Positions 56-40,888 of a stretch of DNA of 40,888 nt are shown here, in pieces. The stretch spans positions 1 to 40,888 of the forward strand of contig CAYGDK010000002.1 of assembly GCA_964348645.1 (NCBI GenBank). The letters are read 5' to 3'. The position numbers and the translations under genes were made by a program. The notes under the pieces were generated by a model. That model was not told the origin of the DNA, ran no database searches, and saw only the letters and a list, made by a program, of their open reading frames with translations. How positions within the stretch are numbered: the first letter of the stretch is position 1; every line of letters begins with the position of its first letter. This DNA is from an uncultured Candidatus Saccharibacteria bacterium (lineage in GTDB: Bacteria > Patescibacteriota > UBA1384 > 2-12-FULL-50-11).

Positions 56-1730
56 TTGCTTTTTGTGCAAGTCTTACAATAGAGTTTTCAATACTTACAC
101 TCAACAGTTCTCCATCTTCGTTTTTAACACGATTAAGCATTAAGTCTGCAAGTTCATCAATAACTACTACTATGTATGGCATTGTTTTGTTTACGCTTGA
201 ATTGTAATCATCAATTGTTTTAACTCTGGCGGTTTTTAGTGTTGTGTATCTACTTTGCATTTCTTCAACAAGCCATCTTAATGAAGCTTCCGCGTCTTCT
301 GTCTCGGTTATAACCCTGTCAATTAAATGTGGTAGATTCTCATAATCCATAAATTCAGTTTGTTTTGGATCAATAAGTAATACTTGTAAATGTTCTGGGG
401 TCATTGCTTCTGTCAATGTTTTAATAACCACGTTCATAAATACTGACTTACCAGATCCAGTTGTACCACCAATTAATAAATGAGGTGCTTTGTTTAAACT
501 TATCTTTTGTGCTTTGCCGTAAACATTAACCCCTACTGGTATTTCAAGTTTTTCTTTTTCTACCAAAGACTTTGACCAATCTATTGTTCCCTGTTTTTTG
601 TTTGATACTTCTACTCCAACAAGTCCACTTTCTGGGATAGGTGCTTGGATTCTTACGCTTTTAGATTCAAGAGCAAGTGATAAATCTGGTTCGTATGCTT
701 TGAACTGGCTCATCTTAACACCCCTTGATGGCTTCATTGTGTAAAGTGTGACGTTTTGGCCTACAAATGTTTCTTTCATTTCTACTGCAACCCCAAACTC
801 TTGTAGTTTAATTCTAATTTTCTCTTCGTCTGATAGGTTAGTATTTGCCTCAATTTCACTATTAACATATTCAACTGATCTCATCTTTGTTAATGTTGTT
901 TTGTGCGAAACCTGTGGAATTGCTTTAAAGTCTATAACATCAGCCACAAAATCTTTCCAAGCTTCTTTGCCGTTCATGTAGTCACCAAAATTTGGTAGAT
1001 ACTTTTTCTCTGGGTTTGCGATTTCAGTTAATACCTCAGTATAGATTTTATACATATACTTTTTGTACTCTGGGTGTTTATCAAAAACAATCTCGTATGG
1101 TTGAATCTGTGGCTCTCCGCTTTTATTCTCAGATAATTTAACTTCTAAAAATGTCATTGAATATGGATCTCTACCAAACTTTGCTCTAATTGTAATGAAG
1201 TTCCACATTGCTTGGAGAATGTAATCTGGCTGTTCGTCGTCTTTGTCTGTGTGAAATCCTACAAACTTATAATCCCACATTTTTAAAAGATTATCTTTTT
1301 CACTAACAACGTCGGTTATTGCCTTAAGTGGAATAGGTAAAATCTCGTCTTCAAGTCCTTTGTCTGTTGTTACCATAACCTCAACACCTAAAACATTACC
1401 AAGATTTGGTTCTTCTTTTCTATAGTTGTTTACGCCTTTTGTATAATTTTTAAGCATTTGCTCACGAGTTCCAGTTTTTCCGTAATCAATATCAGCGTCT
1501 TTTAAAGTGTTTAAATAAGCAAGACCGACCTCTACACCCTTTTCAAAGTTTCCTGTCTTGTAATAGTGTTCCAATGCTTTGTGACACGCTTTACCTACTG
1601 TAGCTGTTGGAGAGTTCTTGTAATCAAAGATACCTAAAATATAGTTCTTGAAGAACTGTTGTTGGTTTGAACAAAATAAGCGTACTGATGAGTAGCTTAA
1701 ATGATCTAATGGTAATACAATATCAGTCAT
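1..1730 (-). CDS. PD-(D/E)XK (RecB/Cas4-like) exonuclease fused to an FtsK/SpoIIIE-type ATPase. This is the 5' part of a 636-aa ORF that leaves the left edge and resumes at 40833
   Basis: Absent from the ORF track because there is no stop in the window. Hand translation from ATG 1730-1728 gives MTDIVLPLDHLSYSSVRLF..GKACHKALEHYY..GVEVMV..ITDVV..MWDYKF..QAMWNF, then LLIGGTTGSGKS (Walker A), YIVVVIDELADL (Walker B) and VATQRPS. The start overlaps the recT stop (ATGACTGA). Confidence 0.85.
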   Translation of the reverse strand, partial: MTDIVLPLDHLSYSSVRLFCSNQQQFFKNYILGIFDYKNSPTATVGKACHKALEHYYKTGNFEKGVEVGLAYLNTLKDADIDYGKTGTREQMLKNYTKGVNNYRKEEPNLGNVLGVEVMVTTDKGLEDEILPIPLKAITDVVSEKDNLLKMWDYKFVGFHTDKDDEQPDYILQAMWNFITIRAKFGRDPYSMTFLEVKLSENKSGEPQIQPYEIVFDKHPEYKKYMYKIYTEVLTEIANPEKKYLPNFGDYMNGKEAWKDFVADVIDFKAIPQVSHKTTLTKMRSVEYVNSEIEANTNLSDEEKIRIKLQEFGVAVEMKETFVGQNVTLYTMKPSRGVKMSQFKAYEPDLSLALESKSVRIQAPIPESGLVGVEVSNKKQGTIDWSKSLVEKEKLEIPVGVNVYGKAQKISLNKAPHLLIGGTTGSGKSVFMNVVIKTLTEAMTPEHLQVLLIDPKQTEFMDYENLPHLIDRVITETEDAEASLRWLVEEMQSRYTTLKTARVKTIDDYNSSVNKTMPYIVVVIDELADLMLNRVKNEDGELLSVSIENSIVRLAQKARAVGIHLVVATQRPSVDV

Positions 1731-2475
1731 GTTTGGCAGTTTCTATAATTCCATCTTCGCCCTCTAAAATAGATTTCTCTTTTTTAACCTTTGGCTCGGT
1801 TGTTATTATATTCTTTTTGATTTTGTCTTTTTTAAGAAACTCGGATAATGATTTTTTTCTGTCTACTACTGGATCAACCAATACCGTGCCAGATTCTACT
1901 TTTTTAGTTTCCTCTTCAATTACTGGATAGTCTTCTGCGACTTCTTGTATGTCTGAGGCACTACCCATAACTTCTGGGATATAAGTCTTAATAAGTTTTG
2001 ATAATGCTAGGTATCTGAGTTTTAATTGTCTATTAACTCCCTCTCTCCAGCCAACTTTTAATTGACCAGTACTTGTTTTTGTATAACCAGATTTCTCAGC
2101 AGAATCAAACGAGGCGGTGTCTTCGTATTTCTCTTTATCTTTTCTAACTATTGCAGTTACGCTTCCACCACGATCAACTGATTCTTTGTATTCAATTCTC
2201 CAACCATGCTCTCTCACTCTTCTGGCCAGTGCTTGACCCCAGATATTTATCTGACCATTTACGATATAAAGTGATTTGACAGATTCAAGAGGTTTCATTC
2301 CCATTTCATAACCTGACTGCATTATCATTATTGCTTGTTGTGCGTTTGCAATGTTTTGAGGTAAAGCCTTTGATTCTATAAATGTTGTGGCCATATCTTT
2401 CATTTGACCCCAGACTTCTGGTGAAAAATATGTATCTTTAATTGTTGTTATTTCCGTAGATTTCGTAGCGTTCAT
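1723..2475 (-). CDS. recT: RecT/Redbeta-type single-strand annealing protein
   Basis: 250-aa ORF. ..GYEMGMKPLESVKSLYIVNGQINIWGQAL.. and ..RQLKLRYLALSKLIKTYIPEV.. resemble RecT-family motifs. Lies immediately upstream of the exonuclease domain. Confidence 0.75.
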   Translation of the reverse strand: MNATKSTEITTIKDTYFSPEVWGQMKDMATTFIESKALPQNIANAQQAIMIMQSGYEMGMKPLESVKSLYIVNGQINIWGQALARRVREHGWRIEYKESVDRGGSVTAIVRKDKEKYEDTASFDSAEKSGYTKTSTGQLKVGWREGVNRQLKLRYLALSKLIKTYIPEVMGSASDIQEVAEDYPVIEEETKKVESGTVLVDPVVDRKKSLSEFLKKDKIKKNIITTEPKVKKEKSILEGEDGIIETAKHD

Positions 2476-2479
2476 ATTT

Positions 2480-2647
2480 TTATCTTCCTAATTTCTTCAT
2501 TCTTCCAACTAAATAATAGATTCTTCCAACTGATAGATCATACTTTTGCATAATGTCTATCATTTCCATTTTGCCCTGTTGAAACAATTTATAGTCTTGA
2601 AACAATTCAAGATTTCTTTCTTTTTTCTCTCTGTCTATATCTCCCAT
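2480..2647 (-). CDS. Small helix-turn-helix-like protein (55 aa), possible regulator
   Basis: The track ORF 2480-2677 was trimmed to the internal ATG at 2647, because a TTGACA-16-TATAAT promoter lies inside the longer version. MEMIDIMQKYDLSVGRIYYLVGRM looks HTH-like. Confidence 0.5.
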   Translation of the reverse strand: MGDIDREKKERNLELFQDYKLFQQGKMEMIDIMQKYDLSVGRIYYLVGRMKKLGR

Positions 2648-2654
2648 GCTTTCA

Positions 2655-2682
2655 ATTATAGGCGTTATATACCCCATGTCAA
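2655..2682 (-). promoter_or_regulatory. Early promoter, family copy 1: TTGACA-N16-TATAAT, 7 nt from ATG 2647
   Basis: Minus strand reads CAGTTGACATGGGGTATATAACGCCTATAATTGAAAGCATG. About 50 nt are shared with the copies at 36844 and 39106. Confidence 0.55.
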
Positions 2683-2688
2683 CTGGTA

Positions 2689-2712
2689 TTTGCTATATCA
2701 AACACTAGCAAA
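2689..2712. promoter_or_regulatory. Inverted repeat TTTGCTA-N10-TAGCAAA between two divergent -35 boxes (operator candidate)
   Basis: 7-bp perfect arms at 2689-2695 and 2706-2712, flanked by the -35 boxes at 2677-2682 (minus) and 2714-2719 (plus). Confidence 0.3.
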
Positions 2713-2713
2713 A

Positions 2714-2742
2714 TTGCAGTAAACGGCCAAATACTCTATTAT
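2714..2742 (+). promoter_or_regulatory. Plus-strand promoter TTGCAG-N17-TATTAT upstream of tRNA-Thr
   Basis: -35 at 2714-2719, -10 at 2737-2742, about 15 nt before the tRNA 5' end. Same TTGCAG -35 as the tRNA-Asn promoter. Confidence 0.5.
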
Positions 2743-2757
2743 TAATATAGATTAAAC

Positions 2758-2830
2758 GCCTATTTAGCTCAGTTGGTAGAGCGTCAAATTTGTAATTTGA
2801 ATGTCGTGGGTTCAAACCCTACAATAGGCT
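2758..2830 (+). tRNA. tRNA-Thr(UGU): tRNA-Thr (anticodon TGT)
   Basis: Hand-folded cloverleaf: GCCTATT-TA-GCTC-AGTTGGTA-GAGC-G-TCAAA-TTTGTAA-TTTGA-ATGTC-GTGGG-TTCAAAC-CCTAC-AATAGGC-T. Confidence 0.9.
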
Positions 2831-2852
2831 CAAAGAAAACGGGGTGTAATTT

Positions 2853-3152
2853 ATGAATAACGAAGAATACAGACTATACATAGGTAATTTAGAATACAAT
2901 ACTACATCTTCCGACCTTACAACTTATTTGGAGGAAGCAGGAAAAGTGTTTAAGGTTGATATTATTCGCGATGGTCAAACAGGGAGAGCAAAAGGTTTTG
3001 CATTTGTTAACATGGAAAACAAAGAAAGTATAGACAAAGCAATTGAACTGTTTCACTTAAAAGAATTTCGCGGACGAAAACTTGTAGTATCAGAAGCAAA
3101 GACAAGAACTACTAATTATATTCCAAGTCCATCAAGAACTACTTTTAGGTAA
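2853..3152 (+). CDS. Single-RRM RNA-binding protein (99 aa)
   Basis: RNP-2 LYIGNL and RNP-1 KGFAFVNM at canonical spacing. GGGGTG SD-like box 8 nt upstream of the ATG. Confidence 0.9.
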   Translation: MNNEEYRLYIGNLEYNTTSSDLTTYLEEAGKVFKVDIIRDGQTGRAKGFAFVNMENKESIDKAIELFHLKEFRGRKLVVSEAKTRTTNYIPSPSRTTFR

Positions 3153-3317
3153 TTAACCAACAAACATTTGTTGACCCTCTGTGTAAACGACTGGAGGTTG
3201 AGAAAATTTTTTTTCGCGTTTAGACATGAAGACAGGAATATAGGAAAGTAAAGCTTTTGTTATTTCTTCTCCTGTACCATTTTTAATAATTTTTTTAATT
3301 TTTTTCTTTGTTATCAT
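3153..3317 (-). CDS. Possible 54-aa ORF (MITKKKIKKIIKNGTGEEIT..MFVG)
   Basis: Hand-translated and below the track cutoff. No motif. May be noise in the AT-rich spacer. Confidence 0.2.
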   Translation of the reverse strand: MITKKKIKKIIKNGTGEEITKALLSYIPVFMSKREKKFSQPPVVYTEGQQMFVG

Positions 3318-3319
3318 AT

Positions 3320-3646
3320 TGTTTTAAGTTGATCCCTATTGGGACTACGCACCTAACCCTAAAGGAAGAGTTAGTCTATGTTTTATAAACGGCAATCAAA
3401 TTTTTGTAAAGTGTCTTTTCTTTGCGTCGAGTACCACTAATACCAGCTACGGTTTTGATTGAAACCTTGAACTATCCCCATAGGGAAACGCCCATTGCCC
3501 TGCTCCCACCATCGGTTTTTCATGCAACGGAGATTTCCGTTGCTTGGCTTTCCGTTTGCCGTTTTATACTGGTCTGGTGGATCTGCCGATAAGGTAACCA
3601 GTTGCTTTGAAGTTGATAGATGTATATAATAGATTTTGCATATCTA
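3320..3646 (+). ncRNA. Candidate structured RNA (unclassified)
   Basis: No ORF of 60 aa or more in any frame across about 390 nt. About 48% GC over 3421-3600 by hand count. Helices: long-range TATAAACGGCA(3384-3394)/TGCCGTTTTATA(3557-3568); hairpins 3451-3466, 3525-3542 and 3568-3573/3597-3602. Followed by a plus-strand terminator. Confidence 0.45.
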
Positions 3647-3677
3647 ATACGGAGAATAAACCCTCCGTATTTTTTTT
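3647..3677 (+). terminator. Rho-independent terminator (plus strand)
   Basis: ATACGGAG-AATAAACC-CTCCGTAT followed by a T8 run. Confidence 0.7.
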
Positions 3678-3706
3678 GCAACTAAATCTTTAAACATCAA
3701 AACATA

Positions 3707-4234
3707 TCACTTCTTATGTTTGTTAATGTAAATCCAACCTTTAGAAACTGCATTTTGGGTTCGTTCTACTGCGGTTTCTTTCATTTCAACATCATGTTCT
3801 GTACTCCAGTAAATCTCCCCACGTTCTTTTAGGGGTGCACGTTTAATCATAACTTCTGCAATAGCATTTTTATTTCCTTTGCGATATTGTTTAAATCCAG
3901 CAACCATGTCTGGGTGAATAACAAAAGCCGAGTTGTCGTCAATTAAAGTTCCATCACATCTTTTGCCAACATGCTCACATTCAAAGACTGTTATTAAGTT
4001 TTCTGCGTCGTTACTTCCACCATTACCGTTTGGGTCAACACGATGAACTTGAAGCTTTGGGGCTCTCAACTTACTTATGCAACCGTCGCAGTTTCCACCA
4101 GTATAAAAACCTTTCTCTTCTGAATAGTGTCTCATTTGTGAAGTGTGGTTGTCTCTCTCTATTATCTTTTGTCGTTGCGTTGAGGTTAATCGCTCCACAC
4201 TATCCAGTTTGACAGCACGAGATTTTACAAACAA
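3707..4234 (-). CDS. HNH endonuclease
   Basis: LQVHRVDPNGNGGSNDAENLITVFECEH matches the H-N-H core. TTG start as given by the track. Confidence 0.8.
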   Translation of the reverse strand: MFVKSRAVKLDSVERLTSTQRQKIIERDNHTSQMRHYSEEKGFYTGGNCDGCISKLRAPKLQVHRVDPNGNGGSNDAENLITVFECEHVGKRCDGTLIDDNSAFVIHPDMVAGFKQYRKGNKNAIAEVMIKRAPLKERGEIYWSTEHDVEMKETAVERTQNAVSKGWIYINKHKK

Positions 4235-4776: not shown

Positions 4777-5687
4777 GCCCTCTCTGTAATTATTACCAAA
4801 CCACCAAAAGAAAGAACCTTAACATAGTCTTTATCTTGGTATTTGTATACAACTTTAATTTGTGAAGCGTCGATTGCTTCTTTAAGCTTTACCATCAATC
4901 CCTGAGCCTTACCCACAAGCTCTTCATTACTTGATCCGATGGTAACACCTAAAATTTCCTTTAAGGAATAAAGAGTATTTTTGTATTCCTCAATAGTTCT
5001 CTCCATAGCAACGTCGTTATCTTCTGCGTTCCAAGCTTCCAACCACTTAACTTTAGATCTACTATCGTTTTTAAGAAGATCATTAATCAAGTCAACTGTA
5101 TTTTCGTTCTTTTGAAGTCTAGCTTTTTTCTCATCATTGTTTGGATACTCGCCAGTTATTGCTTTGTAGGCGTCTATTATAATTTGTTCTTTGTTGTTTT
5201 CCATAGGTTTTGGTATTATCGGTTCTGTCTGATCCACAAATTCAACAACCAGCTTAACTTCTTTTTCGTCTCTATATTCAGTATGGCCATGAGCACCTGT
5301 GGAATTACCCGTACTTCCCATTTGTGCAACCGTCTGACCAGCCGAGACTTCTGTTCCAACAGGTAAAACCGATCCCTGTTTAAAGTGTGAACCCAATTGA
5401 TAAATAGTTTTTCCATCTACAGTTCCTTTGATTTTAATATAGTTTCCATAATCTGCTGTTAATAATGCTCTCGGTTTTATTTTACCTTTTGAATCTAATA
5501 CTTTGTAAGGGTCACTTTCTGTGTTGGCCAACCAGTTTCTAGTTTCGCTATTTTTAGATTGTACGACTTTACCAAAAATAGAAGATTTGTAATTTGTATC
5601 TGGCACGTCGTCGTGATCATAAGCATTGTACCCATGTGACTTTGGAGTACCTGTCTGCTTATTATTTGTAGGTTTTAATACCTTCAT
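4773..5687 (-). CDS. M23 (LytM-type) peptidase, probable endolysin
   Basis: GSTGNSTGAHGHTEY is the M23 HxH signature. Flanked by TM proteins. Confidence 0.85.
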   Translation of the reverse strand: MKVLKPTNNKQTGTPKSHGYNAYDHDDVPDTNYKSSIFGKVVQSKNSETRNWLANTESDPYKVLDSKGKIKPRALLTADYGNYIKIKGTVDGKTIYQLGSHFKQGSVLPVGTEVSAGQTVAQMGSTGNSTGAHGHTEYRDEKEVKLVVEFVDQTEPIIPKPMENNKEQIIIDAYKAITGEYPNNDEKKARLQKNENTVDLINDLLKNDSRSKVKWLEAWNAEDNDVAMERTIEEYKNTLYSLKEILGVTIGSSNEELVGKAQGLMVKLKEAIDASQIKVVYKYQDKDYVKVLSFGGLVIITERA

Positions 5688-6474: not shown

Positions 6475-9400
6475 TCATTTTAATGCAACTAATTTTTGCC
6501 TGACTACAGCCCATTGCTCTGCTCCCCAATTATCGTAGAGAAGTTTTGCAAACTTTGTGTTCTTTTCTGGATCAAGCATTGCGTCCCAAGCTTTTTGAAC
6601 CTCGTCATTATCAAGTCCATCTTTGTTTAAATACGGTTTGTCGATAATTCCAGCTTCATACATCATGGCTCTTTCCTTTTTACCATTAAGCCAAGTGTAG
6701 TATGTAATGTTGTTTATTCTGAACAATCCGCGATCAATTGAATCAACCTCTTCTTTATTAACAGGATTAATACCTTTTTTAATTGGGGCGTCGTCACTCC
6801 ACATTCCAGTCTTTGGATCAATTCTATTTGCAATATCAATTTCAGCTCCAGTTTTTCTCTCGGCATTTTCCTTTGTTAATATAATCTTTGCGTTTTCTGA
6901 CTGATCTCCCCAGATCTTATCAATAACATCATCGTGTTGTTTTGCTCCAAGCTTAACTTCACCACTAACAACATCAACATTTTCTGGTTTCTTTTCTGCC
7001 TTTTTGTATTCGTCCATTTGATAATTCCAGTCTGGTGCATTATCTGGCCACTTTTGACCTGTCATTTCTACATAGTTGTTTTGCCAACCTTGCAAGTATT
7101 GTGCTTGTTCCTTACCCTCTTTGACATCAATTTTTACACCGTTTGGTAAAACAATTCTAACCATGTCGTCTGCAAAAGAAGATTCTAGCCTATATGGAAA
7201 CTTACGCTCTACAGCTGGATCTTCCTTTTTAAGTAACTTTCTAAAACCAGATTTCAATATGTCTTTTGCTTTCTCTTGCCAAGTTTTCTCTTCTACTGGA
7301 GAGATAGGCAAACCATAATTAAACATCTGGTCTTCGTCAAAAGCTTTGACCTCACTAACGAGACTAAACTTTGACTTCATAAAAATATCTGCAACTAGTT
7401 TTTCGCCAATTTTTAACTCGGATAGATTGTCTTTGACTTTGTTAAACTCTTTTTCTACATCTCTTGATATAACATCTTCTTTTTTAGATAGGTCGTAAAT
7501 CTCGTTAAACTCAGATTCACTCATTCTCTTTTTCATTTCTTTTAGAAGCTCAACCTTTTCTGCGTTTGAGGTTGCGTCAATTAAGCTGTTAACGTTTGGG
7601 TCGCCCTGACCGCGAACAATGCCAAGCCTAAACTTTTTAAGAGTATTTGTTTTGGTTCTTCTTTCGTCCTCTCCAACTGGCGATTCGTGACCTAAAACAT
7701 CGGTTATTAATTGCTTTTCTACTTCATACTTGTTGGTCATGCTTGGGTCTTTTTGATATAGTTTAATAGCGTTATCAACCTTGTTTCTAATTTCTAATGA
7801 CTTTACAGCAGAAGCTTTTCCAGATCCCTTTAGAATATCCCTGTTCATGTCTTTTTGACCCTGATCGCTTACCTTAATCCATCTACCTAGAATGTTACTT
7901 ACAATTGGTAAGTCTAATGTTTTTTGATACCAAGTCTTGTCTGTTTGCTCTGTAATATAAGTTTTAAAGAATGTCCCACCCCCAAGTTGATTAAATACCC
8001 AAGTTGCAAATGGTTTAAATGCGTATTTTCCACCAGCTTCAAACTCAAGATCGTTAATAACATTTCTACCTCTAAAGAAATCATACGGATTTTGACCTGC
8101 CAAAAACTGTGATATTCCAAAGATCGTTGTTAATGTTGGTGATAAGCTTGGTACTTGGCCTCCAGTAAAGCTTAAAAGATCCTGAGCGTCTTTTGCAATG
8201 CTTTGCTCGTTATTTCCTGCCCTTAATACTTTCCACAAAATACCACCCAAAAGCCTACCTGTTTCGTCCTGTGGCATACGGATATAAGTTGTTTGATTAT
8301 TTTTTCTACCAATTGGGATTATTATATAATTGGTTTTGTCATACTCTGAAATGTCCTCAAACATTTTTCTTAATGCGTCTCCAAATAGTCCAGCCAACGC
8401 ACCAAACATCAAAAGCTTTGGGGTAAATGTAACCTTTGCGGTCTTCCACCAATAACCAGATCTTGTTGTCGGATTAACAAAAGCAACGTTTAAGTCTGAC
8501 CTAACACCCTCTTTAATGGCGTTTGCAAATAAAAACACCTCGTTATACCAAGCACTACCAGCACCGCGTCTCAAGAAGTCTGGCGACCCTATGGAGGTTC
8601 TTATGAATGACCCTAGCTGTTTGTTTGGTAATTTACCATTTAGCTCGTTATAACCTGAAACTTTTGGTAATGTTTCAATAAAGTTACCAGATTTTTCAAT
8701 AGTGTCTAAAATTCCATTTAATACTTTGTAAACTTTAGTCTTGTAAATAAAACCTTTCTTTTCGTTTGTTAGTGAACTTAATCCAACTTTAGCCATGACA
8801 TAATCAAGTTGTTTTTCGTCCTCGCTCATACCACTTACAATATCATTGTAGGTAACACCCAACATTTTGCCCTTTTCCATCTTGGCTATGGTTTCATCAA
8901 AACCACCCCATGCTCTGGCTTTTGCCGATGGTAGAGCTTCTTTGTATCTAACAAGGGCTCTCCAAAGCGTCATGTTTGGTGTATTTTTGTAAAGTCTTAA
9001 AAAGTCTTTAAATAAGTTAAATCCTTGAAACCCTAAATTAAATGTAATAAATAGTGGCCTGTAGAGTTTACTGTTAAAGAACTTAATAACACCTAATACA
9101 GCGTTTGCTTCACCTGTTCCTGAGTATTCCATTGTACTTGCAATGTATGGGTCAATGTAATAACCCTTAAATACTCCATTTTCCATGACCGTAAACAATG
9201 CTAGATTTTTATCCTTTGGTTCAACTGGCATTTGAGTTTTGCCATTAAATACTGTCTTTGCGTCAATTATCTCTTCTGAGTAGTTTGTCTTTAAAAAGTT
9301 AACAATTGATGTCTTAACCTTGTTTCTCTCAATTGCACGAATCATACTAATTGTTTTTACAAGTGTTGATGTAGCTGGGTTTGCAATCTCTTTTAAAGTA

Positions 9401-12400
9401 CCAACCTGTTGCTTAATGGAAGCAGAGATGTTTGTATCCATGTAATCTAATACTTGATAGGTTGCGTATGCTGGGTTTGCTTTCATTTCTGCAATTAATG
9501 ATTCTTTGTAAAACCCTGCTTCTTGTGCTTCGTCCAAAACACTTTTGATTGCTTCACGATATTTAGGTAGCAATTTTTCTACTATAGCGAACTTGTCGCC
9601 TAGATTCTTCTTTAAAAAATCAAGTTGTGTTTGTGCGGTTTCAACATTAAAACCAAGTGGGTTTGCCAGTCCTTTAGGTAATAAGCTTTCAACTTCGCTG
9701 TAAAGTGACTTACCATCTGCACTCTTTAGTTTTGAGAGCTCTTTTTTCATTACTTCAATTTGTTTACCTGCCCCCATTTCCTCAATATCCTGTGGCAGTT
9801 CACTAATAATGTTGTTGTAAAGATCTGGGTTTAATCCTTTAATTTGTAGAATAGGACTTTTGACAGCCCCTCTTTCTTTAACTACTCTCTCCAAAAATAG
9901 TATTTCTCCCAAATCTTCCCAATTAACATTGTTTTTGTTTAGCTCTTCGTAAATTGGTTGTATGTTTTCTTCAACAAAGTTTTTAACTAATCCTCCAACA
10001 TAGTTGTGCTCTTCAAGCATGTAGACTGGATTAAGTTCGTCTGCAACAAATATCCCCTGTTTTTTTAATTGTGCGACCTTATCAATTAGTCTTTGGTTTT
10101 TATCTATCAATTCATATTTAAGTCTAAAAGAATAATCTTTGCTCTTTTGTTTTTTCTCTTCAAGTAATACTTTGAATTTGTCCTCACCCTTAACAAACAT
10201 GTTTCTGATGTCTTGTTCCCTTTGAGAAAGTATGGCGTCTTCACCTTTGACCAATAAGTCCCAAGTTTTAAAGAACTCATCTTTGATTGCTGGTTTCCTG
10301 TCAATGTGTTCAAAGAATCCGTTCCAGAATGTTGGGGCAGTTTCTTTAAGTAGTGCTGGGTCATTAAACAAAACGCTTACTGCGTCTGCGTATAATTCTG
10401 GTGTTGAATATCTATATTTTGTAAAGCTTGGATTTTCGTTTTCGTCAAAAGGTTTCCAGATTTGTGTTAACTTTTTAAGCTCTGTTGTTACAACCGAGTT
10501 TCTTAATTTAATTGTTTTGTGAATAGCATTTAACTTTTTAGTTATTCCCTTAATCTCTTTAAGTAAAGACAAGTTCAATGATCTATTACCCTCTGTAACA
10601 GCTCTTTTTCTTTGCAATCTCAATGATCTTCTTTGACCTAATAAAATATCAGTTTCGGCCTCAACCTTTACTCCACTAAACTTTTCTCTCAAGAATCTAT
10701 TTAAACTTGCGATTCTTCCAATTATGTTTCCACGAGCCATTGTTTTGTCTGGGAAGTAATCGGCCAAATGCCCCATCTCGTGAGCCAATGTTTTTGAAGC
10801 TTGAGCTTCGTCTCTAAATATCTCTCTGTTTAAGGCAATCTTGCCGTCACCAGTTGGTACAAAAAATCCGTTTGGTCTTCCACCACCCAAAGACGGTCTA
10901 GGTCTTGGTAAAACAACTGATGGAAAACTGCCTGTTAATTCTCTAACCATTCTCACAAGCTCTGGAAACTCAATAACCTTAATTTGTGTATCTAACTTTT
11001 TACTTAAGTTTTTAAGATCTGCAAATTTTCCAGCAGAAGCGTAAGCCTTACCAGCTTTATATACTCTAGTTTGTTGAACCGTACCTTTGGCTGTTTTAAA
11101 TGCTTCTACATCAACATTTATTTTATCTCCAATTTTTAGATTGTCTGAGTTTAACTGCATTGCTTCTGGAATTAAAGCAAATCTTGATTTTTTACCTTTA
11201 AATACCAACACTTTATCTGGAGTGGATTCTTTATTGTATATGTCTTTTATCGGTTTACCTGCCTCAACTTCCAATACTGGATTGTCCATAAACTCTTTAT
11301 TATTTGCAATCAATGTTTTAATATCAGTTTTTCCTATTTTTGGTCTGGTGTATTCTTGTTCTCCTTTTGAGTTTGTTTTTGCTACCAAGAAAGCGTTTGA
11401 AACTCCAGTATTTCCATCAAACCCAACTCTATTAATTTCGTCTACCAATTCTTTAACCTTAACCACTTTAGATGGTGCAAGTACCAACCCCTCTTTTTTA
11501 GATTCCACTTTAGGCTTTGCTTCAACTTTATCTTTGGTATATGTAATTGGAATACCACCGACTGTTTCTGTTGGTAGATTTTTCTTTTTGACCTCTTCTT
11601 TTGAAACAATCTCTTTTGTATCCACTTTTGATATAGTTTGATCTACTTTCTCTATTGCTTGGTTATAGAAATCTTTTAATACATCAATATCACTAATTTT
11701 ATTTTCTGCGTAAAGTTTTTGATACTGCGGTGCTTGTGCAAATGAAACAAAAGCATTAAGTAAATCGCTACTTTCTTTTGGTATGTTTGTATCTCCAAAA
11801 ACATAATTAGTTTTGTTTGTAAATGCCTGAATAAATTCCTCTGCTGTCTTATACTTTTTAGCCTCTTCTACTAATGGTGTTGGATCTGTTTTGTTAACAT
11901 TTAAACTTGTTACCCCCACGTCGTCTCTTTGTTGGTTTATAACTGGTTGTCCGTTTTCTTGGGTCAATGCCTGTTTAATAACATCTGGCACATTTTTGTC
12001 TGGCTCTTCGTCTTCTGTTTTTCCTTGCAAAACCTGTTCTTTGTCTGCAATTATATTAATTACTTTTGCTTCTGAGGCTGTTTGATCTCTTGCGTCACTT
12101 CCTGCGTCAAAACCGCTCAATGATCCACCGATAATTGCACCAATGATTCCACTTTCAAGCATACCGTCTGTTGCCTCTTTCCCAGTATTTACATTTGAAA
12201 TTGCGGATTGTATAGCTTCTTGGCCACCCTCAAAGAAAGCAGAAGCAAATAATCTTTTAAGTGCTGTTTTGTTTTCTCCAAAGATACCAAGTTTGTTTGA
12301 TATTCCTATTGTAAAAGCGTTTGCCCAGAATGTCGCACTCGCCTTTTTTGAGGATTCTTCTTTGTCTTTACCCTGTTTAAGATTATCATCATATACAGAT

Positions 12401-13344
12401 CCAGCCTCACTCATGGCTTCAAGAGCTGTTGCTGATGAACTGGCAAAGAATAAAGCAACACGGGGGGATACCTGAGCCAATACTGATGTAAGCTTTCCTG
12501 CTCCAATTGATGGTACAAAAAATGTTAAAGCAGAACCCACACCCTCTGCCAATTGATCTGTAAATGTTGGCATTTCTGGCCTCAACTCGTCTGCCCAAAG
12601 CTTCAACTTTCCTGATACTTTGTCGCTACCCTTGCCTAAAACATCTGCTTTTTTTCTTTGTATGTCTTTTATAAACTGTGGCACAAGCGGATTCTTTTCA
12701 TAATTTTTGGCGTTTAATTCACTTGCCCAAGTTACTGCGTCTGCCATAGAGGCTGTACTTTCCAATACTCCAGCACCAATTGATTTTTTGGTTTGTTTGT
12801 TTGATAGTTTGACTACAGTATTGTTTCTTTTAATAATACTTCCAATACTTCCTGAGTTGTCGGCAACAATACTTTCAAGGTCTTGGATCTCTTTTTGTCT
12901 CTTCTCGCTATACTTTTTGTTTTGCTCGTCGTTTAATTCCTTAATCTTTAATTGAATTGGTGGAATTGTAGACATTCTATGATAATCGTTATAGCTTATC
13001 TTTCCCTGTGCGAAGTCTGTGGCGTTTTGTTTTTGAACATTAAACTCAGTAACAAAGTTATTTTTAATAACTTCTGCCTCTTTTTGAAATGCTGGTTTGA
13101 TTTTGTCGTTAAAGGTATTCTTAATAAAGTCACCTGCCTTTTCTAAAAATCCTTTTTTCTTTTGCTCAACTTGTGCAACCTGAGATGGTTTCTCTGTTAC
13201 AACTGGCTTGGTGGCATTTAATATAGAATCTCGTCTCTTTTGGAAGTCTGAATCATTTGACGTAACATTACTAGGCTTACTTGATGAGGTATCTTGTATT
13301 CCTAAAACTTTATTTCTTCTCTTTTTAAATTCATCGTCATACAT
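6475..13344 (-). CDS. 2289-aa polyvalent virion/ejection protein with a zincin HExxH motif and a lysozyme-like C-terminal domain
   Basis: Uninterrupted ORF. AHEMGHL is encoded at 10768-10782. C-terminal SIDRGLFRINNITYYTW (about 6717-6736) resembles the lysozyme D-x-G-[IL]-F-Q-I-N-x(3)-W motif. Confidence 0.85.
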   Translation of the reverse strand: MYDDEFKKRRNKVLGIQDTSSSKPSNVTSNDSDFQKRRDSILNATKPVVTEKPSQVAQVEQKKKGFLEKAGDFIKNTFNDKIKPAFQKEAEVIKNNFVTEFNVQKQNATDFAQGKISYNDYHRMSTIPPIQLKIKELNDEQNKKYSEKRQKEIQDLESIVADNSGSIGSIIKRNNTVVKLSNKQTKKSIGAGVLESTASMADAVTWASELNAKNYEKNPLVPQFIKDIQRKKADVLGKGSDKVSGKLKLWADELRPEMPTFTDQLAEGVGSALTFFVPSIGAGKLTSVLAQVSPRVALFFASSSATALEAMSEAGSVYDDNLKQGKDKEESSKKASATFWANAFTIGISNKLGIFGENKTALKRLFASAFFEGGQEAIQSAISNVNTGKEATDGMLESGIIGAIIGGSLSGFDAGSDARDQTASEAKVINIIADKEQVLQGKTEDEEPDKNVPDVIKQALTQENGQPVINQQRDDVGVTSLNVNKTDPTPLVEEAKKYKTAEEFIQAFTNKTNYVFGDTNIPKESSDLLNAFVSFAQAPQYQKLYAENKISDIDVLKDFYNQAIEKVDQTISKVDTKEIVSKEEVKKKNLPTETVGGIPITYTKDKVEAKPKVESKKEGLVLAPSKVVKVKELVDEINRVGFDGNTGVSNAFLVAKTNSKGEQEYTRPKIGKTDIKTLIANNKEFMDNPVLEVEAGKPIKDIYNKESTPDKVLVFKGKKSRFALIPEAMQLNSDNLKIGDKINVDVEAFKTAKGTVQQTRVYKAGKAYASAGKFADLKNLSKKLDTQIKVIEFPELVRMVRELTGSFPSVVLPRPRPSLGGGRPNGFFVPTGDGKIALNREIFRDEAQASKTLAHEMGHLADYFPDKTMARGNIIGRIASLNRFLREKFSGVKVEAETDILLGQRRSLRLQRKRAVTEGNRSLNLSLLKEIKGITKKLNAIHKTIKLRNSVVTTELKKLTQIWKPFDENENPSFTKYRYSTPELYADAVSVLFNDPALLKETAPTFWNGFFEHIDRKPAIKDEFFKTWDLLVKGEDAILSQREQDIRNMFVKGEDKFKVLLEEKKQKSKDYSFRLKYELIDKNQRLIDKVAQLKKQGIFVADELNPVYMLEEHNYVGGLVKNFVEENIQPIYEELNKNNVNWEDLGEILFLERVVKERGAVKSPILQIKGLNPDLYNNIISELPQDIEEMGAGKQIEVMKKELSKLKSADGKSLYSEVESLLPKGLANPLGFNVETAQTQLDFLKKNLGDKFAIVEKLLPKYREAIKSVLDEAQEAGFYKESLIAEMKANPAYATYQVLDYMDTNISASIKQQVGTLKEIANPATSTLVKTISMIRAIERNKVKTSIVNFLKTNYSEEIIDAKTVFNGKTQMPVEPKDKNLALFTVMENGVFKGYYIDPYIASTMEYSGTGEANAVLGVIKFFNSKLYRPLFITFNLGFQGFNLFKDFLRLYKNTPNMTLWRALVRYKEALPSAKARAWGGFDETIAKMEKGKMLGVTYNDIVSGMSEDEKQLDYVMAKVGLSSLTNEKKGFIYKTKVYKVLNGILDTIEKSGNFIETLPKVSGYNELNGKLPNKQLGSFIRTSIGSPDFLRRGAGSAWYNEVFLFANAIKEGVRSDLNVAFVNPTTRSGYWWKTAKVTFTPKLLMFGALAGLFGDALRKMFEDISEYDKTNYIIIPIGRKNNQTTYIRMPQDETGRLLGGILWKVLRAGNNEQSIAKDAQDLLSFTGGQVPSLSPTLTTIFGISQFLAGQNPYDFFRGRNVINDLEFEAGGKYAFKPFATWVFNQLGGGTFFKTYITEQTDKTWYQKTLDLPIVSNILGRWIKVSDQGQKDMNRDILKGSGKASAVKSLEIRNKVDNAIKLYQKDPSMTNKYEVEKQLITDVLGHESPVGEDERRTKTNTLKKFRLGIVRGQGDPNVNSLIDATSNAEKVELLKEMKKRMSESEFNEIYDLSKKEDVISRDVEKEFNKVKDNLSELKIGEKLVADIFMKSKFSLVSEVKAFDEDQMFNYGLPISPVEEKTWQEKAKDILKSGFRKLLKKEDPAVERKFPYRLESSFADDMVRIVLPNGVKIDVKEGKEQAQYLQGWQNNYVEMTGQKWPDNAPDWNYQMDEYKKAEKKPENVDVVSGEVKLGAKQHDDVIDKIWGDQSENAKIILTKENAERKTGAEIDIANRIDPKTGMWSDDAPIKKGINPVNKEEVDSIDRGLFRINNITYYTWLNGKKERAMMYEAGIIDKPYLNKDGLDNDEVQKAWDAMLDPEKNTKFAKLLYDNWGAEQWAVVRQKLVALK

Positions 13345-24224: not shown

Positions 24225-24250
24225 AAAAAAAAACTCCCCTCTTCGGGAAG
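24225..24250 (-). terminator. Rho-independent terminator between scaffold and capsid genes
   Basis: Minus strand reads CTTCCC-GAAGA-GGGGAG followed by T9. The G-U pair works only in the minus-strand RNA. Confidence 0.65.
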
Positions 24251-24285
24251 CTCCTTTGTTAGGTTTGCTTTTTTGATCTATATAA

Positions 24286-28114: not shown

Positions 28115-29293
28115 CTACTTCATGTTAAACCATGCTTCTGGATCTTTAGTTTTAGATACATATTTAATGAACTTATAGAGATAATCAAACCATTCTGCAT
28201 ACAGTAATCGCACGTTACTGGTTAAATACTTTTTGTCTGCGTTCTCTTTTATCTCCTGTCTTATACTTACCTCTCCAGATCTTTTAATACACCACATCGC
28301 GTCTCTCACAAAGTCTTCAAATGTATTTGACCTGAAACTATGCTTGTTGTCTATTGTCTCTGGAAACACGCCAAAGTCTGTTGTAAGCGATGGAGTACCA
28401 CAAAGCTGTGCTTCAACGCTTGTACCAGCAAACGGCTCAAGATATGTTGATGGAGTGAATACTGCAATCGCTTTGGCCATTAACTCTGCTTTTACCTTTG
28501 GATCGTTAATAACACCCAAGTATTCTGCACCCTCTAAATCAAAACCCTCTGTTAATTGACCAACAATTTTAAGTTTCTTCTTTAATCTCTGTGATACTCT
28601 TTGAGCTATTTTGATACCTTTCTTTGGAATTGTGCGACCAATGTATAAAAAGTAATCTTCTTTTGGTAACTCAAGTAAACTATTTGGGAAGTCTTTATCA
28701 AACCAGTAGTTTGGAATGACACGATCAGTCATTTTGCCATCATAATTGACATTCTTGTTCTTGCCATATTCCATACCGTGTATAAAGCTTCTGACGCTGT
28801 TACTCTCAAATGCTCTAAATCTTGCGTGTGTTTCGTGATAGCCAATGCCTGTCTCACAAGTTGCTGGTATATTAACTGCGTCTGAGATTGCTTTCCAACT
28901 CTTGCCACCTTGAGGTTGTAACAAGAAGTCTCCCTCTTTTTTGCGTTTGTTGATTTCAATAATGGTGTTTGTTATCCATTTCTTGTGAACTGCTGATAAT
29001 GGTTCTACTTCATCAAATCTAAATGTTTTACCCTTTGTCCAATCGTATCCAATAGCAAAGCGATTATCTCCATCTCCATATGACTGCCTAATATCTTCAA
29101 GTGTGTGTGTTATTACAATCTCGTCTGCTTCAATAACGCTTCCCTCTGCACCGTAGAATATAACTGTGTGGCCTAGAGACTTGAGCATTGACGCCAACTT
29201 TACAATCTTTTGAGTAAATGCACACGGCAAATACTTCTCACTTGCTGGTAAGTGATATAGACCAACCATGTGGAATGTGTATTTATTGTTCAT
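28115..29293 (-). CDS. Glycosyltransferase (GT-B, GT4-like)
   Basis: C-terminal ..STYLEPFAGTSVEAQLCGTPSLTTDFGVFPETI.. matches the E-x-F-G..EA..G-x-P motif. Confidence 0.8.
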   Translation of the reverse strand: MNNKYTFHMVGLYHLPASEKYLPCAFTQKIVKLASMLKSLGHTVIFYGAEGSVIEADEIVITHTLEDIRQSYGDGDNRFAIGYDWTKGKTFRFDEVEPLSAVHKKWITNTIIEINKRKKEGDFLLQPQGGKSWKAISDAVNIPATCETGIGYHETHARFRAFESNSVRSFIHGMEYGKNKNVNYDGKMTDRVIPNYWFDKDFPNSLLELPKEDYFLYIGRTIPKKGIKIAQRVSQRLKKKLKIVGQLTEGFDLEGAEYLGVINDPKVKAELMAKAIAVFTPSTYLEPFAGTSVEAQLCGTPSLTTDFGVFPETIDNKHSFRSNTFEDFVRDAMWCIKRSGEVSIRQEIKENADKKYLTSNVRLLYAEWFDYLYKFIKYVSKTKDPEAWFNMK

Positions 29294-32526: not shown

Positions 32527-32567
32527 TTTGATATAGATGTTGTGCAAAATATGCACTAGTTCTCTTG

Positions 32568-32638
32568 CTCCGTTGGAGGGAATCGAACCCCCATTAATTG
32601 ATTAACAGTCAATCGCTTTGCCTTTAAGCTACAACGAA
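32568..32638 (-). tRNA. tRNA-Asn(GUU): tRNA-Asn (anticodon GTT)
   Basis: Hand fold: TTCGTTG-TA-GCTT-AAAGGCA-AAGC-G-ATTGA-CTGTTAA-TCAAT-TAAT-GGGGG-TTCGATT-CCCTC-CAACGGA-G. Confidence 0.8.
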
Positions 32639-32659
32639 AAGTATTAAAATGTAACGAAA

Positions 32660-32687
32660 ATGATACTTTTTTGCGAGTTTTCTGCAA
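32660..32687 (-). promoter_or_regulatory. Promoter TTGCAG-N16-TATCAT upstream of tRNA-Asn
   Basis: Part of a 12-nt direct repeat AAGTATCATTTT (32657-32668 and 32708-32719). Confidence 0.4.
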
Positions 32688-32728
32688 AAAACGCATAAAT
32701 AGAACCAAAAATGATACTTGTTTGTTTG

Positions 32729-32799
32729 CTCCGCAACATGGATTTGCACCACAATTAGTTGATTCAAAGTCAACTGTCCTGCTGTTAGACGATTGCGAA
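32729..32799 (-). tRNA. tRNA-Gln(UUG): tRNA-Gln (anticodon TTG)
   Basis: Hand fold: TTCGCAA-TC-GTCT-AACAGCA-GGAC-A-GTTGA-CTTTGAA-TCAAC-TAAT-TGTGG-TGCAAAT-CCATG-TTGCGGA-G. The T stem is weak. Confidence 0.75.
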
Positions 32800-32803
32800 T
32801 TAG

Positions 32804-32874
32804 TCAGGAATGGAAGAGTTGAACTTCCGCCTCGTGTACCCAAGACACGCACACTACCGCTATGCAAATTCCTG
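32804..32874 (-). tRNA. tRNA-Pro(UGG): tRNA-Pro (anticodon TGG)
   Basis: Hand fold: CAGGAAT-TT-GCAT..GTGT-G-CGTGT-CTTGGGT-ACACG-AGGC-GGAAG-TTCAACT-CTTCC-ATTCCTG-A. Confidence 0.8.
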
Positions 32875-32884
32875 TGATGTTGTG

Positions 32885-32955
32885 CGAGGTTGAGAAGAGT
32901 TGAACTTCTGTTTAAAGTTTTGGAGACTTTTGGTAAACCACTAGCCTACAACCCC
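32885..32955 (-). tRNA. tRNA-Trp(CCA): tRNA-Trp (anticodon CCA), weak D stem
   Basis: Hand fold: GGGGTTG-TA-GGCT-AGTGGTT-TACC-A-AAAGT-CTCCAAA-ACTTT-AAAC-AGAAG-TTCAACT-CTTCT-CAACCTC-G. Only 2 of 4 D-stem pairs form. Confidence 0.65.
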
Positions 32956-33009
32956 GAAGAGTACGGGTTGATTCTGTGGATTTTGTTGCCATTTAGTTAC
33001 CATGATTTT

Positions 33010-33018
33010 ATTATAACA
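33010..33018 (-). promoter_or_regulatory. Extended -10 TGTTATAAT inside the tRNA array
   Basis: Immediately downstream of tRNA-Asp and upstream of tRNA-Trp. Confidence 0.35.
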
Positions 33019-33023
33019 CAATG

Positions 33024-33094
33024 CGGACGATGAGAGAATCGGACTCTCGCTCTCGCCTTGACAAGGCGACATTCTACCATTAAATTAATCGTCC
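33024..33094 (-). tRNA. tRNA-Asp(GUC): tRNA-Asp (anticodon GTC)
   Basis: Hand fold: GGACGAT-TA-ATTT-AATGGTA-GAAT-G-TCGCC-TTGTCAA-GGCGA-GAGC-GAGAG-TCCGATT-CTCTC-ATCGTCC-G. Confidence 0.85.
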
Positions 33095-40652: not shown

Positions 40653-40888
40653 TTATTTTATATAATATCCCTGTAACCTTTGTAAACCTTGTTCTCTAGG
40701 ATTCATGTATAAAAGATCTCCACTACCGATTAACTTTTCTGCTCCCACTTCGTCCAAAATTACTTGGCTATCTATTTTTGTACTAACCATAAACGATACC
40801 CTTGTTGGTATGTTTGCTTTGATTAAGCCTGTTATAACATCAACTGATGGCCTTTGTGTAGCAACTACAAGGTGTATACCTACTGCTC
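40653..40888 (-). CDS. 3' end of the same exonuclease-FtsK ORF
   Basis: Hand translation: ..[70 protein letters not shown], stop TAA at 40653-40655. 1730 + 181 unique nt = 1911 nt = 637 codons. Confidence 0.85.
40834..40888. repeat. Terminal overlap, copy 2 (identical to 1-55)
   Basis: Direct comparison with bases 1-55. Confidence 0.95.

Follow-up and report, generated by a model that had tools for sequence, protein, structure and literature searches.

We analysed a 40,888-nucleotide (nt) stretch of DNA, called the window below, and with moderate confidence we read it as the genome of a phage of ~40.8 kb whose early regulatory hub carries a short, regulated operon facing the opposite way, made up of a threonine tRNA (tRNA-Thr) and a gene for an RRM protein and bounded by an insulating spacer. 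The two ends of the window share an exact 55-nt overlap (1–55 = 40834–40888), so that it represents a circular phage assembly with a true length of ~40,833 bp, and a gene for a PDDEXK/FtsK-like protein of 636 amino acids (aa) crosses its origin. The features on which this reading turns, in order along the window, are as follows.

2480–2647, minus strand: gene for a 55-aa Mor/C-like helix-turn-helix protein, the first gene of the early operon.
2682 to 2655, minus strand: early promoter TTGACA-16-TATAAT, the sole 12/12 consensus match in the whole genome.
2689–2712, between the -35 boxes: inverted repeat TTTGCTA-N10-TAGCAAA, a candidate operator or activator site, unique in the genome.
2714–2742, plus strand: predicted promoter TTGCAG (2714–2719)-17-TATTAT (2737–2742), with a good -10 and a poor -35.
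2758–2831, plus strand: tRNA-Thr with anticodon UGU, found by ARAGORN and Rfam.
2841–2846, plus strand: Shine-Dalgarno-like GGGGTG, 6 nt (2847–2852) ahead of the RRM start codon.
2853–3152, plus strand: gene for a 99-aa single-domain RRM protein (Pfam RRM_1, PF00076).
3153–3317, minus strand: gene for a conserved 54-aa lysine-rich protein, convergent with and abutting the RRM gene.
3318–3706 (variable core 3336–3685), between the 54-aa and HNH genes: non-coding, G+C-rich, lineage-variable spacer.
3524–3543, plus strand: hairpin GCAACGGA-GATT-TCCGTTGC with a T-rich tail, the first terminator-like site (folding free energy, dG, -14.6; z -3.7).
3646–3679, plus strand: predicted intrinsic terminator with a 9-bp stem and T8 (hairpin 3646–3671; dG -11.7; z -4.8).
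3707–4234, minus strand: gene for an HNH endonuclease, the last gene of the late operon (source gene callers: start 4135, 142 aa).

The window was compared with relatives designated L004, L005/L025 and L006/L107, which together with the window itself make up four lineages. The hub, the tRNA-Thr(UGU) and the RRM gene keep the same order, orientation and position in all four (six distinct contigs); each time, the Mor-like and RecT genes run away from the unit on one side, and the late operon runs towards it, end to end, on the other. Within the window, the minus strand holds all the other tiling open reading frames (ORFs), the other called genes and five further tRNAs, and in the stored gene calls of the identical public contigs L008–L011 the RRM gene is the sole gene off the minus strand. 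An earlier reading of this DNA, made from its letters and a list of ORFs (the sequence-only reading), had proposed that this is the only plus-strand transcription unit and that it starts from a divergent promoter hub. Conservation of the unit in four lineages supports that proposal, and the scattering of these elements among relatives, which had been named as the result that would speak against it, was looked for and not seen: order and orientation are kept throughout.

The back-to-back promoters, the 31-nt gap between their -35 boxes (2683–2713) and the repeat with 7-bp arms are all present as first described. Both predicted promoters are sigma-70-type pairs with spacing within 16–18 nt, the minus-strand one matching consensus at 12/12 positions and the plus-strand one at 8/12. 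Both hexamers of the early promoter are invariant across relatives, and the -10 block of the plus promoter, CTAT(T/G)ATTAA, forms a conserved island in sequence that has otherwise diverged; in L006/L107 the equivalent position holds TTGAAT-17-TATTAT, which the promoter scan lists in L107. The plus promoter gains credibility from this conserved -10 and from there being no other possible promoter for the tRNA and RRM genes. As for the inverted repeat, perfect 7-bp repeats with spacers of 4–14 nt number 29 in 40.9 kb, with ~0.01 expected within the 31-nt gap. It is clear in the window only, being approximate in L005 and degenerate in L004, and no second copy of either the repeat or the plus promoter was found at other operons genome-wide.

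The first gene on the other side of the hub encodes a credible regulator, as the sequence-only reading had suggested of the divergent helix-turn-helix protein. Its ATG, at 2647, lies 7 nt past the -10 hexamer, from which we read the 55-aa frame as the right one and its mRNA as leaderless, and the Mor-like gene of L004 shows the same leaderless geometry. Pfam Mor (PF08765) is the best match for four of four orthologues of the protein (best E = 1.2e-5), and a four-orthologue profile weakly matches the Mu late activator C in PDB (E = 0.35). In the Pm promoter, the inverted repeats to which Mor dimers bind are centred at -43.5 (PMC4390567), while the related activator C acts at late promoters that have a recognisable -10 and lack a typical -35 (PMC2582627). 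In the window, the right arm of the inverted repeat stops 1 nt short of the weak plus-strand -35. With a dyad adjoining a weak -35, and with the Mor and C precedents, activation of the plus promoter is the most economical model: by analogy, the 55-aa protein may activate that promoter through the inverted repeat in the fashion of Mor and C, and we do not claim it as a member of their family.

Both the tRNA-Thr and the RRM protein that had been assigned to the plus-strand unit were confirmed. The tRNA scores 71.1 bits against the Rfam tRNA model (RF00005; cutoff 29), and ARAGORN places the anticodon tgt at position 34; the gene begins ~8 nt past the predicted transcription start site and does not encode CCA. 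Every relative has a Thr(UGU) tRNA at this position. The window copy is a different sequence, with acceptor stem GCCTATT against GCTAGTT in the relatives and an identical anticodon loop, and the retention of Thr(UGU) despite replacement of the sequence argues that its function is under selection. ACA is the phage's main threonine codon, at 38.2 per 1000 codons and 54% of threonine codons. Phage-encoded tRNAs are known to supply codons or to allow escape from tRNA-targeting defences (PMC10264068, PMC11464382, PMC11555353). A link between PARIS-type systems and tRNA-Thr was considered and dropped, no mention of tRNA-Thr having been found in PMC11464382. The unit of L006/L107 carries tRNA-Pro, tRNA-Thr and tRNA-Ala. 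In the relatives, the plus promoter is also separated from the first tRNA by a leader of 45–90 nt that contains a strong hairpin (L004 2853–2928; L005 1187–1272; L006 2530–2582; L107 7702–7748); these leader sequences are mutually unrelated, and the window has none.

The RRM gene starts ~20 nt past the tRNA, and GGGGTG, GAGGTGG or GGTGGTG is kept upstream of it in relatives. Its product matches RRM_1 with 69.3 bits (cutoff 20.7; E = 2.5e-19) over profile positions 1–69 of 70. The RNP2 motif LYIGNL (residues 8–13) and the RNP1 motif KGFAFVNM (residues 47–54), which fall on the central beta-strands, the first and third, of an AlphaFold2 model (E7–11, H19–26, E32–39, E46–54, H57–67, E78–81; mean pLDDT, the per-residue model confidence, 82.6), are conserved in all homologues. 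The modelled order of elements is the beta-alpha-beta-beta-alpha-beta topology of an RRM, and the structural matches of the model are RRM proteins. Sequence matches in PDB, up to 1.8e-22, include poly(A)-binding protein, chloroplast cS22, hnRNP A1/A2 and a 97-aa "RNA-binding protein". The RRM proteins of relatives are 76–88% identical, and strong purifying selection is indicated by the codon changes that separate the window from L004, of which 35 are synonymous and 12 non-synonymous.

In eukaryotes no RNA binders are commoner than classical RRM proteins; in phages these are very rare. A tblastn search gave three weak matches among 50,697 phage records, there is no PHROG family for the protein, and the structural matches in BFVD at E <= 1e-3 are all from giant eukaryotic viruses. 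Among 1.84 billion cluster representatives the RRMs of this phage clade form one 50% cluster, with the next single-domain relative 52% identical, and a word-indexed search found only five 90% RRM clusters. JGI metagenome contigs yielded only RRM genes of 33–46% identity. A more distant RRM gene (44% identical) lies at 1070–1324 of L007, a 3.9-kb contig of small unannotated ORFs, where its neighbours run in the same direction and no tRNA is close by; in Microcystis phage MaAM05, the RRM gene has no annotated tRNA next to it.

The nearest cellular RRM genes (41–52% identical) belong to Anaerolineales, to Saccharibacteria and other Patescibacteria, and to Planctomycetota. A tRNA lies within 500 nt of the RRM gene at 10 of 80 cellular loci (L026–L105), five of them among the 22 from Patescibacteria, counts for which no background rate was computed. 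In one Saccharibacteria genome tRNA-Lys, tRNA-Glu and the RRM gene are all on one strand. This adjacency, taken as a lead, hints at a host group and at an older linkage between RRM genes and tRNAs. The cellular loci often have a tRNA-Ile(GAU) just downstream on the same strand (for example L029 3484–4237 and L028 4001–4474). Bacterial RRM proteins have lately been recognised as global regulators, RbpB of Bacteroides being one example (PMC11697453).

Beyond the RRM gene, the contents proposed for the plus-strand unit need amending: the tRNA, the RRM protein and the terminator stand, and a minus-strand gene inside the unit, encoding the 54-aa protein, had been overlooked. Orthologues in L004, L005 and L025 are 63–68% identical with in-frame indels, the differences from L004 fall 10/5/21 on the three codon positions, and the source gene callers call it; together these show the ORF to be a genuine gene. 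It lacks a Shine-Dalgarno sequence; in all lineages its start follows the motif TTAAAACA(A/T)TATG. The protein has no Pfam or PHROG match, and its helical structure model is of low confidence. In L004 the RRM and 54-aa genes overlap by 8 nt. As the two genes abut or overlap, there is no terminator between them, and a plus-strand transcript must cross the 54-aa gene antisense. L006/L107 are without this gene.

The hairpin followed by T8 near the HNH gene, and the convergence of the unit on that gene, were confirmed as first described. The terminator lies 28 nt ahead of the HNH stop codon, it has the stem and T-run expected of intrinsic termination on the plus strand, and the minus strand lacks a T-run after the hairpin. 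It is one of two clean terminators genome-wide and the only one on the plus strand, and a plus-only terminator placed before the HNH stop is indirect evidence that plus-strand transcription may reach that point. The spacers of L004 and L025 also have a plus-oriented hairpin followed by T-rich sequence, the one in L025 folding no better than shuffled sequence (z -0.43).

Put together, these features suggest the following sequence of events. A consensus, host-type promoter would drive the minus-strand early operon, whose first product would be the leaderless 55-aa Mor/C-like protein. Bound to the inverted repeat, this protein would turn the plus promoter on or adjust its activity, and it might also regulate its own promoter. 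The plus promoter would drive tRNA-Thr(UGU) and then the RRM gene, which has a separate ribosome-binding site; the tRNA would be freed from the transcript by RNase P and 3'-end processing, leaving an RRM mRNA. The transcript would run on antisense across the 54-aa gene and stop in the spacer, at the hairpin with the T-rich tail and at the hairpin with T8, which would make the spacer at least an insulator between convergent units. The tRNA would supply ACA decoding for the ACA-rich genes of the phage, and the RRM protein would bind single-stranded phage or host RNAs or serve as their chaperone.

Several observations weigh against this account of the hub. The Mor match of the window protein is 17.2 bits, under the PF08765 cutoff of 24.9, and it is limited to the C-terminal helix-turn-helix part (profile positions 57–98 of 107). 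The centre of the inverted repeat falls near -48.5 from the predicted start, as against -43.5 for Mor, and its 7-bp arms and 10-nt spacer are unlike the 16-bp Mor element. The plus promoter, at 8/12, is under the threshold of the promoter scan and by itself no better than chance. In L006/L107 the inverted repeat is absent, the -35 boxes are ~21 nt apart and the plus-strand -35 is better; the spacer is missing there too, so termination must work differently in those phages. The sequence of the T8 terminator is not conserved in relatives. Lastly, the model leaves the transcription of the 54-aa gene unaccounted for.

The rest of the genome is laid out as follows, all on the minus strand. The early block is followed by many small ORFs, and the order after these is the five-tRNA cluster, TerS, TerL, the portal, the major head protein, a 2289-aa protein, an M23 endolysin and the HNH gene.

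2480–2647 and 1723–2475, minus strand: early block, with the Mor-like gene and a RecT-like gene.
32567–33094, minus strand: five-tRNA cluster (Asp, Trp, Pro, Gln, Asn), just upstream of the gene for the terminase small subunit.
28115–29293, minus strand: glycosyltransferase-like gene (phrog_3408, E = 2e-56), between the terminase and portal genes.
24227–24257, minus strand: the other clean terminator, with a 13-bp stem and a T-run, immediately after the gene for the major head protein.
6475–13344, minus strand: one ORF of 2289 aa, to which no family was assigned.

The major head protein is ~34–37% identical to those of ~40-kb Bacillus megaterium phages and of gut phage contigs. The Pfam HNH match is weak in the window protein (E = 0.021) and reaches E = 1.1e-4 in its L004 orthologue, HNH orthologues being 57–68% identical. 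Close relatives of the phage are absent from IMG/VR, the matches in INPHARED are to tRNA only, and GTDB genomes gave no prophage and no relative above 52% identity. In the endolysin region, 4780–5674, the window has an M23 gene where L004 has a CHAP gene; this is one of three sharp non-homologous cassette replacements between the two, the others being 2745–2828 (tRNA-Thr and leader) and 3335–3686 (spacer).

The spacer itself is ORF-free, with stops throughout six frames, and its G+C content rises to 50% against 36.5% for the genome. Blastn homology between the window and L004 breaks exactly at 3335 and resumes at 3686, the flanks being 78–88% identical, and the spacer is unalignable in L004 and L025. 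L025 has a spacer of 254 nt next to a methyltransferase-like gene instead of the HNH gene, and L006/L107 have no spacer and three ORFs between the HNH and RRM genes. The stretch from the end of the late operon to the RRM gene appears as a hot spot for cargo: L025 (3–500) has a DNA-methyltransferase-like gene (phrog_757) there, L107 (5937–7198) has three ORFs, one of them DUF6291, and in the window and L004 nothing but the spacer and the 54-aa gene lies there. Two direct repeats, TTTTAAGTTGAT (3322–3333) and TTTGAAGTTGAT (3606–3617), 11/12 identical, bracket 272 nt (3334–3605) of its G+C-rich core; the left one sits where L004 homology ends, and no terminal inverted repeats were seen. Blastn of the spacer against all fetched loci gave nothing, an exact 20-mer had no match in IMG/VR, and a gapped two-anchor pattern of the spacer gave only chance matches in unrelated coding regions. 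We set aside a hidden or recoded ORF (stops occur in all six frames, and the genome uses all three stop codons) and a pseudogene remnant: an exact 19-nt match in IMG/VR (L230) lies in a gene whose product, judged by its motifs, may be malate-synthase-like, and with only 10 aa matching, at E = 0.057, it is chance. The count of a CRISPR-repeat-like tag, ATTGAAAC, is likewise as expected by chance.

We consider it rather unlikely, though the best placed of the alternatives, that the spacer is an element acting at the level of DNA: a genome end (a terminal repeat, or a cos or pac site, beside the packaging-type HNH gene) or an origin, its G+C content, its short CCGTT/AACGG repeats and its hairpins then reflecting protein-binding sites rather than RNA structure. 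In many terminal-repeat phages the genome ends sit between the end of the late region and the early region, and this is exactly where the spacer lies, with HNH, the last late gene, on one side and the early genes on the other. It also diverges far faster than its flanks, it has CCGTT three times in direct and once in inverted orientation within 3527–3565 and TTCCGTT twice within 20 nt, and the fragmentary assembly L010 stops at window position 3633. Against such an element, however, the TerS and TerL genes are ~26–28 kb away, TTCCGTT is not enriched genome-wide (nine found, 5.4 expected), and no k-mer is common to the three spacers except a weak TATAAAC. The circular assemblies have unrelated break points, which neither support nor exclude a terminus. 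A search for tandem or dispersed repeats and for iterons gave nothing significant.

Another way to view the spacer is as a lineage-specific, structured plus-strand RNA (~3336–3685), either the 3' part of the tRNA-RRM transcript or made on its own, that partners the RRM protein in an RNA-protein particle. The sequence-only reading had described an ORF-free structured segment here. It is ORF-free and G+C-rich, both of which favour an RNA, as does the canonical plus-strand terminator at its end; the structured part of the description was not established. Folding is only ~1 to 3.6 standard deviations better than that of dinucleotide shuffles, with the terminator hairpin contributing to the best windows, and a search of 3153–3706 against Rfam 15 gave nothing at gathering score, nor anything in the core 3318–3575 even at E <= 10. 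Far below threshold (E <= 10), sraA (3638–3729) and Diantho_3_UTR (3576–3722) matched on the minus strand at the end with the terminator and HNH stop, and the same search of relatives returned tRNA only. Two short helices apparently keep their register through compensatory changes: where the window has TGCT-CCCACCA...TGGTGGA-TCTGCCGAT, L025 has TGCT-CCCAGA...TCTGGG-TCTGCCGAT, and where the window has TTTATAC-TGGT...ACCA-GTT, L004 has TTTATAC-TCG...CGA-GTT, with five pairs, two of them compensatory. This covariation is anecdotal, coming from two or three sequences and depending on how they are aligned. Moreover, the promoter scan found no promoter-like site in the spacer on either strand, hence no sigma-70-like plus-strand promoter, the spacer is unalignable in L004 despite 88% identical RRM proteins, and L006/L107 keep the RRM gene without it. 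We regard a structured RNA partner as improbable, and the supposed place of the segment in an RRM module is not supported: it is cut off by the 54-aa gene, it is not conserved with the RRM gene and it has no promoter of its own. The spacer is a real, unusual, lineage-variable stretch of non-coding DNA, and a structured RNA of the RRM unit is not established. It might serve as an insulator, as the 54-aa gene's 5' region, as a pac site or terminus of the genome, or as the source of a lineage-specific RNA.

A bolder interpretation, to which we give little credence, is that the early tRNA-Thr(UGU)-RRM operon serves host takeover or counter-defence at the level of RNA, with the RRM protein binding or shielding tRNA or phage mRNAs or sequestering host RNAs, and with the phage providing a tRNA-Thr of its own. 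Were it true, the repeated swapping of tRNAs and spacers would reflect an arms race with RNA-targeting defences of the host, a partner RNA or decoy peculiar to each lineage could come from the spacer, and the recurrent RRM-tRNA adjacency in Patescibacteria would reflect a tRNA-linked role of bacterial RRM proteins that the phage has copied.

Very improbable is that the unit is a moron, a recently acquired, self-contained, dispensable and variably present cassette, along the lines of the moron-like module that the sequence-only reading had proposed: its orientation opposite to all other genes, its own predicted promoter and terminator, its modular content (one or three tRNAs, a swapped tRNA-Thr, leader hairpins present or absent) and its nearest cellular RRMs, only 41–52% identical, some beside tRNAs and compatible with ancient capture from a host, speak for it, but the unit stands at the same site in every relative found, with RRM proteins 76–88% identical and under purifying selection, its G+C content equals that of the genome, its promoter is interlocked with the early promoter, and the four lineages, a small sample, show no presence/absence polymorphism. 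With no relative lacking the unit and with its genome-like composition, a strict moron is unsupported, and a conserved accessory operon with modular content fits better with these sequences.

If the function of the operon is routine RNA chaperoning and codon supply, then what we describe is a tidy but ordinary organisation of a phage genome. A phage clade that keeps an RRM gene by its main early promoter offers a testable entry to the role of RRM proteins in infection, and the hub may provide a compact model of how Mor-type activation works beyond the Mu-like phages.

How far the hub resembles known systems differs from part to part. Like Mor and C of Mu, the 55-aa protein is a small helix-turn-helix protein of the early phage genes whose predicted target promoter has a good -10 and a poor -35, with a dyad-symmetric site just upstream of the -35 and abutting it; it differs in having 55 aa against the 107 positions of the Mor model, and the candidate site is missing in one lineage. 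Lambdoid morons likewise have a predicted promoter and terminator of their own, non-structural cargo and a site at an operon junction, whereas the unit here is not variably present, is interlocked with the early promoter and has a genome-like composition; of the two predicted flanking elements, the terminator lies 500 nt past the cargo, beyond an antisense gene, and is not conserved.

As with known phage tRNAs, the tRNA-Thr is a bona fide tRNA in a lytic-type phage that matches the most used threonine codon, ACA, and one lineage has swapped its sequence while retaining the anticodon. Unlike them, it is the sole tRNA at the early hub and lies across from the strand that carries the main five-tRNA cluster, and its co-transcription with the gene for an RNA-binding protein is predicted; no defence system that targets tRNA-Thr was identified.

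The VIPR system combines a phage-encoded RAMP protein, which has an RRM-like core, with a GGY/NN repeat RNA (bioRxiv 10.64898/2026.04.26.720920). The window also has a phage-encoded protein of RRM fold beside non-coding DNA, but that protein is a classical RRM_1 with RNP motifs and not a RAMP. A VIPR-type system was rejected, as neither strand of the window has a run of at least three GGYNN units, whereas the vrRNA has 9–16 tandem YNNGG. The closest likeness is to the bacterial single-domain RRM proteins (cyanobacterial Rbp; Bacteroides RbpB, PMC11697453), which share the length of ~100 aa, the single RRM and the RNP1 and RNP2 motifs. The tail of the window protein, however, is short and rich in Ser, Thr and Pro rather than glycine-rich, and its gene is carried by a phage, immediately 3' of a tRNA in a predicted operon. 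It is this phage-borne, classical RRM gene welded to a tRNA that is new, all the other parts being of known kinds.

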